A stretch of 59,905 bases of DNA, counting the filler, from Sphacelaria rigidula (Eukaryota): the NCBI GenBank assembly GCA_964200075.2. It is 8 parts of 8 records of this genome, joined end to end, with 100 filler letters (N's around TTAATTAATTAA, not from the genome) between each part and the next. Parts side by side here need not be neighbours in the genome. Positions count along the whole stretch, not along the records: positions 15,003 to 22,403 come from CAXNAA020015089.1; 7 more parts are not named here. The stretch is one strand, 5' to 3'. The translations under genes and the position numbers were made by a program. Below, piece by piece: positions 11,651 through 47,476 of this stretch. Numbering within the stretch: the stretch's first letter is position 1; each line of letters begins with the position of its first letter. A model generated the notes under the pieces. The model saw only the letters and a program-made list of their open reading frames with translations, searched no databases and was not told the DNA's origin.

Positions 11651-13355
11651 TACTGTTTACAGTATCGGCTTCAAAGTAGTCGAGTCGTGAGATTAGAGTA
11701 TAGAAGATACGATTGAGTCAGTATTCATTCGTCTGTGCAAAATCGTGCCCCCATTCGTTGTGTGGATGTGGAACTCGTTTCCGCTCAGAGAGTCGGGAAA
11801 AAGGCGGCTCGTTATTGACGAGACTGCATCATCCAACTCCCCGCCTTTGTCGGAAAACACGGTTCAGATATTCCAAACTCAATATTCTGATTGAAACTTT
11901 CGCCACAGTTTGTGTTGTTGTATTCCGAAACAGCAAATCATTGAGCAATATTCACGAAGCCTAAAAGTTGGCTCCGGTTCCAATATTTTGCAAAATATGC
12001 CGCCAGCAAATACCCCCAAAACTAGTTGACGAGCCCGGGACAAGAGTATCAAGGCTAATGCAACTCAGCTGATCATTGGCGTATGATATTCTGCCTCTTC
12101 ATGCCGAGAAGAGGCACAAAATGTCGTGGAAGCCAGCCTCTGTTCCATGATTTTCTCACATACGATTGTAGCAGATGATTCCAAATTACCTTGCACGAAG
12201 CCATTGAAACATGTCCCTTTCTAGGCTGCAGCAAATCGACTTTGCCAAGGGCTTTCGCCGACCGCATTGTGTATCCGAAAATGCACCCAAAGATGTGCGA
12301 ATGGACCCGTCGTGGACAGCTCATAATCCACCAACGCGGGAAACCATCACTACCCCATCAGCGAAATAGCTGCAAAACACCGGGACTACTTGCTAGTGAA
12401 AGCACAACAATTAGAACCGGTCAGCAACAAAAAACATCCTGCTGTGCGGTACAGCAACCATTAACGAACACCGGACGCTGGATCTCGGTAGACTTTGTGA
12501 CCACCGCTCCTGCTCCACCTCTTCTGTACTTGGGAGCATGGAACGTCGGGATCCAGTTTTCCCGGCATGTAGCGGTGCAACTCCACCTCTACCTCATCCA
12601 TGCTCCCCTCCTCGAACAACAGTATGTAGCCGACACAAATCGCTGGCTCTGCGCATCTTGATGTCATGCTGAACGTCGATCTTTCAAAGAGATGCGCCTT
12701 GCACGTCGTCTTCTGCGTGATACAGCGGGAATAAATGATCGGCGGCAGCGTTGAAGGGCACGGGTAATCGCAGGAGTTAACAGGGCTGGTTGCAGTTGAT
12801 GAATCGGACGCTTCAATACAGTTGAGCCAGTTTTAACAAATAAAAATTCAAACTCGCGCAACAGGACACGTGCATCTGTCCCGGGTGGGGATAGTCGGAT
12901 CGTGGAGTGGGTGGGCAGGTGCTGCTCATTCCGCGGTCAAATGTATCTATCCGCCTGGCACCGAGGATGATATCGACATGTTCAACACTACGCAGGTACT
13001 CGCGATCGAAAAGACGTGGACTACTCCTATTGAGGGGCTAAGCAGCTTCGACTCCGGCGACATCAAGCACAACATCCTCTGGGGCCTTGTCGAGCTTGAT
13101 AGCGTCTTCGTCGGTGACGTTCATCTGCTTGGTTAAGGAAGGATTAGCGACAGCGGAGGAAAAGAGGCGGTGTGCATGAGGTACGGGTACGACTGCTCAG
13201 AGCTCAGTTTCACGAAGTGCGCACTGGTATGATCGTCAGGGGTTGCGACGTATCGATGAAATAGTACATGCACTGGTGGGATGATTCTAAACGGGGGCCG
13301 AAGAACACACTTTGATGTTGACGCTTTTCAGAACTATCGCTACCCCTAACCTTAG

Positions 13356-13799
13356 AACATGGAATCTTACAAATTGGGGATGGATCATTTATTAGGGATG
13401 AGAAACCCGGAGGATTAAAATCTTCGTATCCGCACCAAATATTCGAAATATGGTTCCATTTCTTCACCTATTGATAGCTATTGACAACTGCTACACGCCA
13501 TAGAAACTTGGAATTCGATCACCGACATGTTGGGGTCCTAGGTGAAAAACAAGTTTTGTGGAATTCCGGGTGTCCCAGCGGACACCAAAATGGTTCCGAA
13601 TTTGTTTTTTCACCGAGGACCCCAAAATTTCGGTGATCGAAATCCAAATTCCTATGGCGTGTAGCAGTTGTCAAGAGCTATCAGCAGGTGAAGAAATGGA
13701 ATCATATTTCGAATATTTGGTGCGGATGCGAAGATTTTAATCCTCCGGGTTTCTCATCCCCAATAAATGATCCATCCCCAATTTTTAAGATCCCGTGTT
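13356..13799. mobile_element. Fold-back MITE (444 bp), copy 1
   Basis: ~195-bp imperfect inverted arms, ends AACATGGAATC / GATCCCGTGTT, flanked by a TTAG direct repeat (13352-13355, 13800-13803). Confidence 0.92.
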
Positions 13800-14902
13800 T
13801 TAGCACAATCCAAGGCACACCGAGAATCCTCGGGAGAGGGAAGTACATGGCTTTCTCTAGCATACGTGCGGCCTTGGAAGACCCAAAATCGGCGCCCGTG
13901 CCGCTGTTTCGAACGAATACGCGTTTCGGCACGCGAGGAGCACACGGGACTGTCGGCTCCACTGAAGATCCGATTATCGATGTTCACACTCAAATCGAGC
14001 GATATTAACCATGGACATAGTACCCCGGTCAACTTCGCTTTCATGGCATCAAGGTGACGGAGTACGCACATACCGAAGTTGGAGTTGTCACAGACCAGCA
14101 CGCGGGTAAGCCATTACGGGTGGACCGCCATAGCGTGATTTTTCCAACATTATGTCAACAGTCTTTAATTCCCACCTACCCGCGTATCTGTACAGAACGG
14201 ATCAGCGGCAGACTCGTCACAACAACAGTACAGCACTTGAGGCAATCCTCAACGCAGATCAAACCACCTTCACATACTACAGTACAGCACAACACACGAG
14301 TGTGCAGTGACACACGCATCATATCAAGAAGGCGTCAAGACGACCAGCAAGAAATTACTCCGTCTCCACGATCAAAAATGCAGTACACTAAAGGAAGAAT
14401 CGCCTCATACCTATGTATTGCGTGATGTCCTCGTGAAGCGCCATCCGCGGACACAATCGCGGAGGCCGTCTCTTGGCCGTGTAGAATGATTTGCATCTCG
14501 TGCTTGCGTCACAGGCCGGAAAACAACAAATTATATCATGGCAGGTGCGACGGTACCATGTATGTTGCTTGTTGATTCTTAGCAATGCAGGCGCCGATTT
14601 CGACAAGAACACTGCTGCTGTGACCTGCCCTGAACCATAAATTTCGTCAGAGCTTTCCCTGATCTAAACAAATGTGAGAGATCGGAGCGTGAGGGGATCT
14701 AACAACAAATTGTGCGAATTGAGGTTTAACTCCGAGATGAAGTCCAAGCCTAAAACAGTACTTTCCGCACACTTTCAGCGATGATGCGCAATGACGTTTT
14801 TGTCGACCTAATGCCCCTCGATCGCGTAGATACGTTTTCAGCGCAATTCATCGACTCTGTGAGCTTACAGCGCTGACCGGAACTGTCATTTTCCCTGATA
14901 TT

Positions 14903-15002: not shown

Positions 15003-15610
15003 TTTTGAGTTGAACCTCATATTTTTTTTCAACCCCATTTTCAAAAATCGGCTGTTATATGCTTGTGAGAGTAACGACTTGCTTGGGACGTCTGGTTGAG
15101 GATCCAACCGTACGGCATTTACTCTTTTTCTCACACGACGATACGAAATAGCCGACCGGTTTGTGAGGTCAGGTGTCCGTACACGTTGAAAGAAACGTGG
15201 TGGAGAATACACAACCTTCGGGCCTACTACGTAGTTCCGAGGCGGATCGCCCACCACATTTCTGGACCACGACAAATACACAGGACAGAGAGGACCAGCG
15301 CAGCCCACTCCTCATAGTATTTGCTCGTTCGGACTGAAACGAGACTGGCCCGAACCCAAGCTGGAGTAAAACCCACAGCCGGTCGTACCGTCACGTTACT
15401 CTGTCCAATAATCCCTGATAAAAACAAAACACCACCGACCGATTTCAGGGGCAGGTAATTGTACACAAAAAACTGGTGATAGTGACAGAAAAAAATAGCG
15501 AGTGGCGGACTCTGAGCCTGTAGGCTGTACCAACGGTCGAATATCGACATGGCGGAACGGACAGTTCCGGAAGAGCAATCTACCTTATCATGACACGTAA
15601 TAGTCCTGTA

Positions 15611-16632
15611 CTTCCTCTGTCCCATAAGTAAAGTCCGTTATGGGGGGAAAATCATATATCGCCAATGGAGTTGCCCACAATACTATGGTTAGGGTTTTTG
15701 AAAAGCTGTTGACATGGTGATGCTTGTTGAACAAAAAACAAAATCTGAATCAAAATTACTGAGAATTAGTGGATCAAAAAGTGGGCATTTTGGCGGGAAT
15801 TTGATAATTGTTTTAGATTTGTTTTTGAAAATTACATTGAGAATTTCTGCTTTTCTGGGCAATTTAACGCCCATTACCCCCACAACCACGATGGAGATCC
15901 CCCCCAAACGTAAACGGGGCGCAGATGTGTCGTTGGGCCGCCGGCATGCAATGGCGGTGGAGATAGCGATGGCCATTCCCCAAGGAAATTCGAGGATGCC
16001 CAAGGGCGTTCTAGGCCCCATGGCGGAGCTAGTCACGCAACCTGCACAGTCGCCTGACTTGAACGTCAACGATTTGAACTTCTTCGCATCTCTTGAGTCG
16101 AGGGTATGGGGGATGAATGCAAGATCGATAGACGAGTTGGTGGAGACTATCTTCAGGCTGTACGACGAGTACGACGGTGACACGTTGGAGCGGGTTTGGC
16201 AGAGCCTCTTCAAGGTTTACAACCAAACACTACGTGAGAGATGGGTGTCAACGACTTTAGTGTGGAAGATTCCGGGGTGGGGGTGCGGCAGAGAGCAGGA
16301 ACGTTAGAAAGGATGGTAAAATACGATAAGGATGCCTTCACGAAGGCCTGGGACTCCCTAGCGGCAAACCCTAGCGACGACGAGGGCGGGTAACATTTTT
16401 TTCTTCTGACACTTTTTTGCCGCTGCAAAAGGGCCTAAATATGGCCTTTTTTGGGCTGACTACTTTTTTTTCGGACGGTCGCGTGAGCCGGGGAGTGCGT
16501 AGAAAAACAAAGCAAAACGGGGTTCAACCCAAAAAGCATCAAAGATTTCAAAAACATTATCGCCTGCGATACCGGACACGGCTAAGGGTTCGTGTGAGAT
16601 CATAACGGACTTTACTTATGGGACAGAGGAAG
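15611..16632 (+). mobile_element. Non-autonomous DD39D-type (plant-mariner/Stowaway-related) element, 1,022 bp
   Basis: Perfect 32-bp TIR CTTCCTCTGTCCCATAAGTAAAGTCCGTTATG, TA on both sides, internal transposase remnant. Confidence 0.95.
15891..16393 (+). pseudogene. Internally deleted mariner transposase
   Basis: N-terminus MEIPPKRKRG.. fused in frame to QPAQSPDLNVNDLNFF...SIDELV...LERVWQSL (C-terminal catalytic region); tail GVNDFSVEDSG..LERMV continues after a frameshift to TAA at 16391-16393. Confidence 0.9.
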
Positions 16633-17573
16633 TATTAGGAGACGTTTGCAACCGATTACACTGCGACTTCGATGACATGTCTCAACACCGCTATGTACGA
16701 CGCGGCCAGTGGTGACCTGGTTGTAACTTACCACTCACCAAGTATAAATCATCGCGTCGCATCACCCTTGACCTTCATATGCACGAGGTCGGTCACACGC
16801 GGCAGGACTTGCAAAAAACAGGAGGCCAAATGTTCTAGACTTGAGGGTCAGGAACGTTGGAACACTCATGCCAAATTCCCGAGACAGACGCAAAAACCGA
16901 GACCAGAATAAATACAAATCAGGGGCACGCTGGGCAACAGCGAAAACGAAATACCCGCTACATAAAGCAGAATAACAACACGTGGCAACCGTCCTTGTAA
17001 ACGGGAGCGGTTATCGTGTGAATGAAGCAAGCAGGGTCATGAGTTTCAATCAAGAGGGTCAAAACATTTCAGGCATTCGGCTTCGGCTACTATCGCCCAT
17101 GTTAGTATAAAACTCAAGGTGGTACGCACACAAAAAGGGGGCACGTCGTTACCGGTCCTGAAGGGGGAGGCGGTATGTGTGTACGGAGCGGTTGGGCAAG
17201 AGCGCAATTATTCCAGACGGGGAGGTCAGGTATATCTAGCGCTCGCTACTAAACCTCTTGACTAAAAAGACAAAAAAAACACACACACACACACCACAAA
17301 ATAAGACAAAAGGTGCGTACAAAAAAAAATGAAGAAATAAATACCTTGTGGCAACTGTTCCAGTGGACGGAATGGTTGTGAATGTACGGCGCGGAGGACG
17401 GAGGTTCAAGGTTCCAGACTCGGGATCAGGAATGAAACGGTCGTCACTTATACTTCGTCAGGTGAACCCAGAATTAACCAAGAAAAGTACCCATTGAACA
17501 CAAAAATCGACTACAAAGCAGGAGGCGGAAAGAGAAGAGAAGAAGGGAAGAAGAAAAAAACGAAGACAAAAAC

Positions 17574-17943
17574 AAATCAAAACAAAGGACGCAAAGGCAA
17601 AGAAAACCGAAACACAAAATCAGGGTCCAAAGCAACAAAAAGCACAACACAAGAAAAAAAAATACAAAAACAAAAGACGAAATACCAAATACAAGACACA
17701 ACATCAACCACAACAAGTACGGGGCTAATTTACGAAACCAAATGAAGGGGAGTGTGTGTGGTACTCCCCTTCATTTGGTTTCGTAAATTAGCCCCGTACT
17801 TGTTGTGGTTGATGTTGTGTCTTGTATTTGGTATTTCGTCTTTTGTTTTTTGTATTTTTTTTTCTTGTGTTGTGCTTTTTGTTGCTTTGGACCCTGATTT
17901 TGTGTTTCGGTTTTCTTTGCCTTTGCGTCCTTTGTTTTGATTT
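17574..17943. repeat. Near-perfect long inverted repeat (~180-bp arms, 9-nt loop)
   Basis: 17574-17753 is the reverse complement of 17763-17943 apart from homopolymer-length differences. Confidence 0.95.
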
Positions 17944-18557
17944 TTTTTTGTCACCGAATGAAGGGGGGGGAGAACACATGGTTTTCCAACGACGCTACGG
18001 TGCAAGACAAGCGACTCGAACACGGTACACTACGCAAGGTGAATGGGGAAGCAGACTCGGATGCGGCATTATGAGTCATCTGCATCCCAAGCGGTGTCCG
18101 TGTTCCGTAGAACGGCTGTTTCGAGTTCGCCTTGGTCGTGTCATTGAAGGCACCAGGATCCCCTCCGAGCGGTCGGCTCCTCGGTGTAGTAATCATCAGC
18201 CAAGCGAATCTTAAGGGGGCTCGGGTCATCGAGGAAACGGATAAAGTAGGAGTGGTCGGACGCAGGATCGACCAAATGGATTTTACCCAACCACCACAGT
18301 GAATCCAACGCCTTATACCAAAAATGCGCCCCATTCGGCAATCGTTTTCCGTGAAAACACTGCATGTATTGTGAACGCGAAAGAAGGCTATAGGCTGTCA
18401 TAACAAACCGCGCTGAGTGTTCACGTGCCAGTTCCCGAGCGGCAGCTCCCTTGCGCATCGACCGACATCTCTTATTCAACAGGCGGTGTTGAACGGTATC
18501 TCCTACCCAGTACAGCAACTTTCCCCGACGAAAATGACGCAAATCAACTTCACGCTC

Positions 18558-19763
18558 CTATATAACACGCATGGTACCCTTCCAATGTGTTCGATACATT
18601 ACCGCTATCCTACCTCCACGACCGCGAACCAGTTGATGGCCCAGAATCCTATTCACCTCGACGCGTTCCAGGGGTGCGTCCGCATTCTCGACCGTCATAT
18701 GATACGGCGGAGTTTTGATCGCATACTTGGTCAACACATACTGGCTAAGCCCTAGCGGCAGTTGTTTGGGCATGTCGGAGGAGTCATGAGGGTGGATACA
18801 CAGTTTGCATCGTAGCATCGAGACACGATATTTCGGTTTCAAACCAGGTTCATCCGTGGGAAAATCTAAATACAAACGTTTCGCTCCCACCGGACTCTTG
18901 TCGGGTGCGGTAGCGCTTGGACCAACAGCTAAAATTTCCCAAGGACGAGTCCAATTAAGGGATAGTTTCGCCTTCAACACTTTTTCCAAAGACGATGATT
19001 TCGAGCTAGCCCCTTGACTGATGGTCTTCACATCGTTATACACCCATGCACATTGGCCTACCTTCCACACCGGGCGGTTATATACCACATCATCCAACAT
19101 CGAGTTCGCCCTGGCCACCTTGGCCAAATTGACTTGTTTCTGTTCTCGTACCACGTCATATGCAAGACGAAGGCGATTGATAACCGACAAATGATACTCT
19201 ACAACATCACGATCTGGACTCTGATGTCCGCCTGTATTTTTGCGTTCGAACACCGTTAAAGGTAACCTAGGCATGTGTTCAATATGAATTTCATTCGGCG
19301 ACAATCCGGTAGCGGCATTGACTGAATTGTTGTAGTCCATTTGGACAAGGGGCGGGTGCACGTCCCAGTCCATCGATCTCTCAATTGCTACAGCAGCAAG
19401 CATCTGTGCCATCGTATGGTTCACTCGTTCCGTTCCACCATTGGTGGAAGCGTGATATGAACTAGTAAAAATGCGATGGGCAACCAAAAGGTCACTGACG
19501 GCGGCTGAAAGTTTGCCTGAAAAATGTGGGCCGTTGTCAGCCAGTAAGCGTTTGGGCACACCCCACAGTCGGATGTACATGTAGACAAGAATGTTGGCGG
19601 TACCTTCCGCGGTATAACTGCTGGGGGGAATGGCGTGCATCACCGCATGTCGACTAAATCTACCCGTAAACAACAAAATATACTTATTTCCACTATCCGT
19701 CAGGGGCAAAGAGCCACAATAGTCCCACGCAACTACTTCACCAGACCCGTTTGGTAGTGGCAT
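18558..19763 (-). pseudogene. Gypsy integrase core plus chromodomain N-half
   Basis: 401-aa ORF with D-D-E motifs; ends at a TAG that occupies the conserved Trp of the chromodomain xWE motif, and the frame continues into the 18141-18542 ORF. Confidence 0.9.
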
Positions 19764-20493
19764 GGAAACAATCGGCCAACGAACTGTTTGACGAGACGTT
19801 TTGCGCCTGACACAAAAGACAACGCCTCACCCACCACCAACACTGATCCATACGTATCCACCAATAAAAACGTTCAACATCTGGGAGGTCCTAATGGCGC
19901 GTAAATGAGTCGATGCCTGTGAATGGCATCCGTGTAGAAACCATGGGCGCAGGAGCATCGGGACGTTAATGCGGATGGGTTCATCACCTAGCAAGCGGGC
20001 ATGTCGACTTGTAGGCTTCCCCCTGGGGAGAGCTGCTGTGGACCGGCGAACTAACAGAACTATACCATCATCATCCGTATGTAGCATACCTTTCCTTGAA
20101 AGTTCAGTAACTTCATTCTGTGTGGGCGCTTTGAGATTCCCGACCGGCAAAAGGAATTCGGTTTCTGAGATTGGACATGGGCAACCTTTAGATAGATAAT
20201 GGTTAGCTGATTTACAAGCAGGTTCTGCCTATTGTTCCCGGGCCCAATCGGCGTGGGAGAAGGGAGTCAAACATTCCTTGAATGCACCATCTATCTGTTG
20301 AAGCGTCTACTTCGTGTTGGATCGGTTCGGGGCGGGGTTGGCACGAAGCGGTGATTTCGGGATCAAGGGTGAGCCTACCAGTTGGTGTACTCTCAGACGG
20401 AACCTTCAAGTCTACTCCTGCGTCAACTAGCGTGGAGGGTGTTGTGGTGGTGTTTGCAATATCATCACCAAGGGAGGGGGGCACAGCCGTGGA

Positions 20494-21715
20494 TTAGGCT
20501 ATGGTTGGCAGGGGCGGCACGGTCGGGGTCGATTTTCGGGGGGCCTTGCGTCGAGGAGGCTGCGGGGGCGCAAGGAAACTATCGGAGACCAGGGTGGGGG
20601 CAGGGAGGGGAAGTTCAGGACCAGATACGGCTAATTTGGTGGCCGTTTCGGTGGTTTCCCGTCCACGAGTCCTACTCGAAATCAAATCTCGAACTTGAAC
20701 TGGTAAGACGGGGTCAGCAAAGGACGGTTTTACACCTGCTGCGAAAACCATGCGCTGGCCAGTTGCACGAAAATGATCATAGCCAACAGTATTCGTAGAC
20801 AGTTCATTCCAAACTGAGTACAACGATTGAGTTTGCAAGCTGCCTAGGACTGATGCGTGGGCTGTGGTCATCAGCCCACCCATGCCAAAAGCCGGCGTTT
20901 CTCTCAGCGAAAGTGGTGTGTAGAGGCCTCTATGTCCATTCCGGCTTATGAAATATACAATGTCTTCGGTGGGATCGGTGATACGTCCCATGGTGGATTT
21001 GTCAATAGGTTGAGCTGGTGTGGGCAAACGTGATAGAAAGTCGGCGTTTGCATTCTGGGGACCTGTGCGGTACTTCAGTTGAAAGTTGTCAGACGACAGG
21101 ATTTCGAACCAGCGTTGGACCCTAGCGTTGTGTTCCGCCATTTTGGCAAGGCTTTCCAAAGCCTTTTGATCGGTATACATCACAAACGGGATGTCATACA
21201 AATACTGGCGCAGACGTCGCACGCCCCAAACAACTGCGCCGGCCTCTTGTTCCATGACAAACCAATTCTGTTCATTCGGAAAAGTGGTGCGACTCAGATA
21301 GACAATGGGACGAACAGTAGCATCGACTTGCTCCTGTTCTAATGTGCAGCCAAACCCAATTTTGGAAGAATCTGTGTGGACCCGGAAAGGGCGGGAACCC
21401 TGCTCCGTGGCCGACCAGTCGAGGAAGACGAGAATCGGCGGGCGCGAAAGGGTATCAAGAAGGCGGCGGACGGTTTTTTCCATTTTCAATGTGAACACAA
21501 ATTTCACCCCCTTTTTGAGGAGGGTGACGAGGGGTTTTAGCGTTTGGGCAAGGTCTGGCAAGTATTGTCTGTAGTAACTTAGACCTCCCAACAAGAAATC
21601 CAGTTGAGAAATGTCTCGTAGCATAGGCATATCGGAGAGTGCGGCAACCTTGTCGAGGTTTGGGCTACGACCTTCGGGCATGATACAATGACTCAAGAAC
21701 TTACCTTGCTCTTGT
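20494..21715 (-). pseudogene. Gypsy RT C-terminus plus RNase H
   Basis: KFLSH..G..P..DKVAAL..MP, FLLGGLSYYRQY, RNase H motifs as above. Confidence 0.9.
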
Positions 21716-22403
21716 ATCCATACAGGTTTTCGAAACCCCGCAGTCCGTGGTCTACGAATCGAACATAAACAGCAAAACATGTTTTTCATTCATGTACTTT
21801 GATATGACAATAACGAGAATAATCACGCGCGGCTTGGTGCTGTATATACTGGACTGCGTACAACACCGTACAGGACAACAGTACGATATATTGTGCTTAC
21901 CCATGTACGGTGCAGTATACTGCAGAGTTATAGCGTGGCATATGGGCTACGTATGGCTATACCAGAGTGGATGCCCGTAACTTTGCGTACATGGGGGTGT
22001 TACATACCGTCGGCTACTGCAGTTTAGACCACCGCGCGTGTTCTTGCAGCGTGCGCACAACTGCCGTCAGTAGGAAAGAAATCACACCCTGCTCAATCGG
22101 AGCCAGCGCATCCAACGCGGAATACAGTCGGTAGTACAGCAGTATAATGATGTCGCACTCTCTCATATCTCTCGCTACTCGTCGCGTGGTCGAGTCTGCG
22201 TGACTTCCCACTGCCAGCTCGAGCATGAAAGACAATGCTCTGTGTTGCTAATTTCAAAGCTCAAAAATAGTATAGTCCCTCACCCCCCATTTATGTATTT
22301 ATGGTGTACACCAAGCATGTATAACGGGAAAAGAGCTGCCGCCCCCTGTACCAAGAGAGGCACGGAAAACCCGAGGTACAGGGAGTGGCGTGTATCATAA
22401 CAG

Positions 22404-46751: not shown

Positions 46752-47197
46752 AACACGGAATCTTTCATATTGGGGATGGATCATTTATTGGTGATGAGAA
46801 ACCCGGAGGATTAAAATCTTCGTATCCGCACCAAATCTTCGAAATATGGTTCCCTTTCTTCACCTACTGATAGCTTTTGACAAGTGCTACACACCATAGA
46901 AATTTGGATTTCGATCACCAAAATATCGGGGCCCTAGACGAAAAAATCAATTTCGGAGCCATTTTGGCGTCCGCTCGGACACCCGGGAATCCACAAAACT
47001 GTTTTTTCACCTAGGACCCCAACATTTTCGGTGATCAAAATCCAAATTCCCATGGCGTGTAGCAGTTGTCAATAGTTATTAGTAGGTGAAGAAAGCGAAC
47101 CATATTTCGAAGATTTGGTGCGGACAAGAAGATTTTAATCCTCCGGGTTTCTCATCCCCAATAAATTATCCATCCTCAATTTGGAAGATCCCGTGTT
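46752..47197. mobile_element. Fold-back MITE (446 bp), copy 2 of the 13356-13799 family
   Basis: Ends AACACGGAATC / GATCCCGTGTT, flanked by a CTGT direct repeat (46748-46751, 47198-47201). Confidence 0.92.
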
Positions 47198-47476
47198 CTG
47201 TGCCTGCTGTACTTCCTGTTATGACGCCATGAGCCGCGTCGGCGGGAGGCAAAGTTCGTGATAGCTGAGTCTCGTATTTTACCTTCATTTCATCCCAATT
47301 TAGTACAGTGAGCCGTGGCGTAGACTGTCACTAAAATAATTTTCAAACCACGTTTCGGCGGTGCATTCTTGGGCCAGCGCTGCTACGCCCGTTAATGCCA
47401 GACACATATCACAGTACACAACCGTACAGCCCGCCAAGGAGAATATGTGCGGGGAATTATGTGCCGGTTTGGTTAG

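Follow-up and report, generated by a model that had tools for sequence, protein, structure and literature searches.

A predicted chromodomain and Tudor-like barrel in tandem at the integrase C-terminus of a brown-algal Gypsy retrotransposon family

Introduction

Integrases that end in a chromodomain are known from chromoviruses, elements with plant group II chromodomains, MAGGY, oomycete Chronos and ECR-1. In the accessible parts of the reports on these elements, the chromodomain is single and a barrel trailing it is not described. For Ectocarpus, the available portion of Dinatale et al. 2025 (PMC12477816) describes three Gypsy lineages with a chromodomain, which are placed outside the chromoviruses, and one with a Tudor domain; none has both. 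One of the chromodomain lineages also bears NADAR: this is lineage IV (e.g. Gypsy-12_Ec32), in which the chromodomain is fused to the integrase. The Tudor-bearing lineage, represented by Gypsy-10_Ec32, is separate and, as described, its integrase ends in a Tudor domain only. The lineage considered here, chromodomain-tailed integrases and Tudor-tailed integrases are all, in this sense, already known.

Methylated H3K27 and H3K9 are the usual ligands of chromodomains. According to the accessible text of PMC13076208, H3K27 methylation is absent from brown algae, five of which were examined, and H3K9 methylation is patchy, while H3K79me2 is reported on repeats in brown-algal chromatin in the portion seen of PMC12477816. 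This chromatin context, on which the original prediction drew, therefore stands. Loss or patchiness of the usual ligands raises the question of what chromodomain-bearing elements that are abundant in these algae bind.

Here we examine a window of 59,905 nucleotides, comprising eight parts of the Sphacelaria rigidula genome (GCA_964200075.2), contigs of ~7.4 kb linked by N spacers, one of which (CAXNAA020015089.1) carries a Gypsy integrase with an unusual C-terminus. The models that we describe below identify the Pol of an abundant brown-algal Gypsy family as ending in a fixed cassette of ~200 residues, in which a predicted chromodomain is followed by an arginine-rich helix and a Tudor-like barrel. 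This tandem of chromodomain and Tudor-like barrel appears to be an architecture that was not reported before.

Results

The locus is a decayed Gypsy pol on the minus strand of the contig at 15003-22403, and the feature of interest is the C-terminus of its integrase. Pfam finds the order RT-RNase H-integrase in the window and in sister copies, which is the order that defines Ty3/Gypsy elements. The Pol fragment of the window copy is bounded by the upstream end of the contig at 22403, and its RT end and RNase H lie at 20494..21786 (Pfam RT_RNaseH E 2.6e-29, frame map). Downstream on the same strand are the integrase N-terminal zinc-binding region at 19827..20228, interrupted by a stop in this copy (frame map; Integrase_H2C2 occupies the same position in sisters), and the catalytic core with its D-D-35-E motif at 19440..19745 (Pfam rve E 1.3e-4, motif positions). 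These are followed by a putative integrase C-terminal domain at 18789..19076, recognised by alignment conservation, which we take to be a GPY/F-like module.

The frame map recovers, as written, the peptides from which the original prediction was made, in the minus-strand frame 19826->18141 that also encodes the integrase. Behind the integrase core come EVNRILGHQ..., a stop at 18558-18560 and an in-frame extension to GSWCLQ, so that a chromodomain followed by an in-frame extension is borne out. GSWCLQ is not the end of the extension, however. A second in-frame stop (18141-18143) follows it directly in the window copy. The stop usual for the family is reached 24 codons later, at 18069-18071.

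Projected onto the minus strand of the window, the cassette begins with the chromodomain of three strands and a helix (18501..18671), assigned from the sister-copy model, VIA-align and cage counts; Pfam Chromo matches it at E 0.0055, below the cut-off, and the stop at 18558-18560 interrupts it in the window copy. The arginine-rich linker helix, cassette residues 70-86 by DSSP, corresponds to 18423..18473 and has basic columns at 70, 73, 76, 82 and 86. The Tudor-like barrel of five strands, which has a short strand and a helix on its N-terminal side, spans 18138..18392 and is cut near its end by the stop at 18141-18143. From sister copies, a C-terminal tail and the usual stop occupy 18069..18137. 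The cassette as a whole is mildly basic (33 K+R vs 27 D+E), and the excess sits in the linker (10 vs 3).

BLASTN against sister copies and a repeat scan identify 15057..18068 as the 3' non-coding part of the element on the minus strand, common to sister copies but interrupted here by a foreign insert of ~1 kb (about 15610-16631) and an inverted duplication (17565-17952). The 3' LTR of this copy falls past the contig end. The insert holds a 201-codon plus-strand frame (15702-16307) and is possibly a DNA transposon fragment. The duplication, near-perfect at 97% and situated just 3' of pol, is absent as such from sister copies and is either a local rearrangement or an assembly artefact. Elsewhere in the window, two MITE-like hairpin elements of ~450 bp (13353-13802 and 46752-47199), with inverted arms of ~200 bp, are about 90% alike.

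The family numbers at least 150 copies in the S. rigidula genome, since all 150 of the scored candidates, out of 979, match it. Among 49 other copies (L002-L050), the stop at 18558-18560 occurs in none and that at 18141-18143 in one (L050); both stops are thus damage to the window copy. The whole cassette is open in 32 of the 49, which were picked by their match to the extension, so that the share of copies without it cannot be derived from them.

With the window copy included, the 50 copies split into groups of 31, 16, 2 and 1, and selection was estimated between subfamilies A (31) and B (16), excluding C (2 copies) and D (1). Net dN/dS was 0.09 for the barrel (bootstrap 0.04-0.17), 0.08 for the linker (0.03-0.21), 0.04 for the tail of the integrase core and 0.12 for the putative integrase C-terminal domain. 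These ratios are rough because synonymous sites are near saturation, and that of the chromodomain is undefined. The barrel is under purifying selection, and the low ratios indicate an extension about as constrained as the integrase.

Comparison across copies gives an estimate of element size. In element orientation, ~690 nt of sequence 5' of one copy correspond (78%) to a stretch that another copy has ~2.5-3.2 kb 3' of pol, and a second 5' end matches at 86% over 183 nt. Among the family copies examined, none was seen with both LTRs and a TSD. Inferred across copies, the LTRs would be ~680 bp and the element ~13 kb.

A C-terminal profile built from six sequences matched 736 clusters (50% identity) at E<=0.001 among 1.84 billion representatives. 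Together with the 150/150 candidate matches and the purifying selection, this indicates that the extension is not a chance reading frame. Among the matches listed (150 plus two earlier ones), coverage extends to both domains in 31; another 60 are chiefly chromodomain and 55 chiefly barrel, and 6 include neither. The partial ones are mostly short fragments or frameshifted. Named relatives come only from brown algae, namely S. rigidula (94%), Ectocarpus sp. CCAP 1310/34 and Nemacystus decipiens, and cluster members also from Pylaiella littoralis and Laminaria digitata.

The barrel lies in the same frame in every one of the eight long Pol or integrase relatives retrieved, a set biased by a query that included the barrel; one of the eight is without the chromodomain front and one has an internal duplication. 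Relatives thus run on through the barrel, and the alternative of intact copies stopping after the chromodomain is not what we find. Furthermore, a divergent clade at 23-28% identity, some members of which have integrase domains, retains the cassette, with both domains covered in 18 of 26 rows. This persistence and the low dN/dS uphold the conservation that was proposed as a check.

Four long proteins without integrase (P0086, P0174, P0094 and P0028) show apparent coiled-coil and low-complexity sequence and carry the barrel at their end, and P0028 has the chromodomain as well. P0086 and P0094 have a weakly similar N-terminal region in common. The N-terminal parts of these proteins matched neither the family's upstream ORFs nor any fetched locus; they may be Gag-like fusions belonging to non-autonomous elements, or may have captured the module.

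Single-sequence Pfam and PDB searches with the window C-terminus matched no domains, and the barrel alone, from the window or sister copies, had no Pfam match. For structure prediction, a natural open-frame sister copy, not the window copy, was modelled with a 125-row alignment. The two-domain AlphaFold model has a pLDDT of 92.9 (all five models, 91.9-92.9) and a pTM of 0.85. By DSSP it is laid out as three strands and a helix (9-59), a helix (70-86) and the barrel (119-181), after which come only short helices of low confidence.

Residues 4-60 match chromodomains, Chp1 best (VIA Z 8.3, rmsd 1.7 over 53), and each of the first 24 VIA rows is a chromo or chromoshadow domain or a protein bearing a chromodomain. 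Pfam Chromo is found at E<=1 in 16 of 125 cassette members (best 1.7e-4). The modelled three-stranded sheet with its C-terminal helix is that of a chromodomain, and the fold originally proposed for this part is accordingly the one predicted.

Modelled alone, the second part reaches a pLDDT of 90.8. The Foldseek rows listed through rank 20, 15 in number, are without exception Tudor domains of PHF1 and PHF19 (best E 3.1e-3, none <=0.001), with rmsd 1.9-2.5 over 47-52 residues and 29-33% identity. PHF19 also comes first (E 0.017) in a profile search of PDB sequences, an agreement that is not fully independent because Foldseek also uses sequence. VIA-align, at Z 5-6.3, ties Tudor, extended Tudor, Spindlin, one PWWP and a TraI barrel; since Z values of 5-6 fail to separate Tudor from other SH3-like barrels, we label the domain a Tudor-like barrel of SH3 type.

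The Foldseek result bears out a Royal-family barrel in its Tudor-like form. The PWWP identity, also put forward, ranks below it and is not favoured: among 125 members Pfam finds PWWP in one (E 0.12), VIA in one row at Z 5.2 and Foldseek at rank 41 and below. ESM Atlas leads, all below 0.9, point to Chromo for the whole piece (0.80) and to SH3/Tudor-like clusters for the barrel (0.81-0.88). Beside the Polycomb-like Tudor domains of PHF1, PHF19 and MTF2, its best fold and profile match, the barrel differs in a long insertion before the last strand, an N-terminal helix and the absence of two of four cage residues; fold and profile comparison with these proteins gave no evidence of orthology.

Cage positions were placed by profile alignment (to Swi6 and MPP8 for the chromodomain and PHF19 for the barrel) rather than structural superposition. 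Those of the chromodomain (Y24/W45/Y48) are aromatic in 3/55, 84/94 and 6/95 rows, and in 0/17, 23/23 and 0/23 rows of the divergent clade. On this alignment the domain keeps one of three cage aromatics, the central Trp, and would not qualify as a classical group I methyl-lysine reader. The pattern is that of group II in the accessible text of PMC3350952, and differs from that of ECR-1, which retains all three residues according to the part seen of PMC11541908.

The PHF1 Tudor cage consists of W41, Y47, F65 and F71, and W41A abolishes binding, as reported in the available portion of PMC7492083. The first three corresponding barrel positions are aromatic in 0/107, 80/96 and 75/88 rows, Ala being the commonest residue at the first (51/107), and the fourth in 0-2 of 82-85 over three candidate columns. 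In the divergent clade the counts are 0/23, 0/21 and 1/21, with 0, 7 or 0 of 21 at the fourth. The barrel thus appears to keep two of four PHF1-type cage residues in the near clade and none or one in the divergent clade, fewer than a Polycomb-like reader would have. Common to both clades are core residues, surface polar residues and arginines of the chromodomain hairpin and linker helix. Aromatics are conserved at 18 columns of the cassette, and those at some of these columns (121, 122, 129, 145 and 176) could possibly form a non-canonical pocket.

An N-terminal NADAR occurs in six relatives, one labelled Ectocarpus sp. CCAP 1310/34, that also carry the barrel; the NADAR-bearing relatives are 56-59% identical to the integrase of the cassette family. 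An integrase tree with 23 rows places four of them in one clade with the cassette family (100/99), which is sister to a branch of NADAR-bearing proteins; two other Gypsy lineages of the genome lie apart from that clade, with a long-branch warning on the outgroups. This grouping lends no support to the chromovirus setting originally invoked.

The cassette family itself has no NADAR; the genome holds two NADAR matches, neither beside pol within the fetched flanks. Being without NADAR, the family is filed as sister to lineage IV and not as a member. We infer this link from NADAR on the relatives, with the published families compared by description. The elements are of similar size (~13 kb inferred, vs 14.3 kb for Gypsy-12) but differ in LTR length (about 680 vs 268 bp), and a trailing Tudor-like barrel goes unmentioned for lineage IV families in the text and annotation table seen of PMC12477816. 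The sole strong NADAR match in the genome (L108, G000:C4:35363-35809) belongs to a frame of 720 codons that has no pol in its vicinity.

Another lineage in the genome, with 76 matches to PF21743 (PTM/DIR17 Tudor), is probably the counterpart of Gypsy-10_Ec32. Its integrase, on a separate tree branch, is 22-23% identical to that of the cassette family and its Tudor is of a different type; PF21743 is not among the families listed (25 of 30) for the 125 cassette members. We rejected the identity of the cassette family with Gypsy-10_Ec32 on integrase divergence and Tudor type, as judged from this probable counterpart. Some 35 residues before the Tudor of the Gypsy-10-like elements (L052-L061, e.g. 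L057:1186-1644:+ and L059:1186-1635:+), there is a conserved segment that by eye resembles a degenerate chromodomain. Pfam, a PDB profile search (0 hits) and hhalign found no match for it, the hhalign test being powerless because it likewise failed on a control pair of accepted chromodomain alignments.

Discussion

We favour a role for the cassette as a chromatin tether on the integrase that would act independently of methyl marks, a reading to which we assign a probability of about 0.5. After Pol processing the cassette would remain on the integrase and tether the integration complex to chromatin, by contacts with nucleosomal DNA or the nucleosome surface, or with a host chromatin protein, that involve no reading of methyl-lysine. 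The chromodomain and barrel would probably work as one unit, with added avidity and perhaps an insertion bias to a chromatin type. Binding independent of methyl-lysine seems most likely because neither domain has a complete cage and the clades share core residues, arginines and surface polar residues instead. Indeed, plant group II chromodomains without Y24 and Y48 still localise to heterochromatin, their ligand being unknown (PMC3350952, accessible text). The tandem Tudor of PHF20L1 binds nucleosomal DNA irrespective of methylation, according to the part seen of PMC13285377, and by analogy may serve as a precedent for DNA-dominated nucleosome binding. The methylation state of H3K27 and H3K9 in brown algae fits the loss of classical cages without proving it.

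In a dual histone reader, as put forward in the original prediction, each domain would bind a methylated histone residue (e.g. H3K79me2 or H4K20me3) by way of an aromatic pocket that is reduced or has moved, and insertion would be directed to silent chromatin rich in repeats. This reading can point to the proven readers PHF19 and PHF1, which the barrel matches best in structure and profile (29-33% identity), to two barrel cage aromatics and the following Asp retained in the near clade, to the 18 conserved aromatic columns and to MTF2, which binds weakly with three cage residues (PMC7492083, available portion). The canonical cages are nevertheless incomplete in both domains across the lineage: no row has an aromatic at the first barrel position, the divergent clade has lost the two remaining barrel aromatics as well, and the chromodomain retains one of three. 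We consider this reading quite unlikely. A bolder version, in which a rigid bivalent chromo-Tudor cassette reads H3K79me2 silencing chromatin via a pocket of non-canonical type and tandem chromo-plus-Tudor tails have two origins, one in the cassette lineage and one in the Gypsy-10-like lineage, is more doubtful still.

Tether function might instead reside in the group II-like chromodomain alone. Helix and barrel would then play a structural part, either by lending stability to the chromodomain or the integrase multimer or as one more SH3-type barrel that holds donor or target DNA. The high pTM (0.85) of the model suggests domains packed together, and VIA-align ties Tudor with SH3-like barrels outside chromatin, a TraI domain being top (Z 6.3, rmsd 3.6 over 76). 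Two other Gypsy lineages in the genome do without such a barrel, however, and in P0086 and P0094 it ends coiled-coil proteins that have neither chromodomain nor integrase; hence the barrel can stand apart, and we hold a purely structural role to be possible but on the unlikely side. Alignment of helix and barrel with the extended Tudor of piRNA-pathway proteins (Z 5.0-5.4 over 76-88 residues) would suit a cassette acting outside integration targeting, on element RNA, Gag or an arginine-rich host protein in particle assembly or evasion of small-RNA silencing. Such Z values are typical of common arrangements, at 8-16% identity, and the position at the integrase C-terminus beside a chromodomain fits known targeting modules, making this about the least probable of the functional readings. 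That the extension is non-coding read-through or a functionless captured relic might be argued from a window copy that is broken and a barrel that, in window or sister copies, escapes Pfam. Low dN/dS, the confident fold and both domains in 18 of 26 divergent rows have effectively refuted it already.

Our literature search, outside which most subscription journals lay, found no report of a chromodomain and Tudor in tandem on one integrase. The works compared, in their accessible parts, included PMC12477816, PMC11541908, 10.64898/2025.12.07.692804, PMC5348765 and 10.1101/2021.11.30.470311, the last of which tabulates 823 TE fusions in a table that may include multi-reader cases. The presence of the cassette also means that domain-library annotations of these families are incomplete.

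The cassette offers a small, testable unit that is predicted to be well folded, and its ligand would reveal how retrotransposons choose sites under rewired chromatin. Should binding prove methyl-specific, it would be a possible reader for H3K79me2. In a third Gypsy lineage of the genome (L066-L082), the first cage position of the chromodomain is aromatic and the protein stops directly behind the helix of that domain; this lineage provides a natural comparison group for insertion-site studies.
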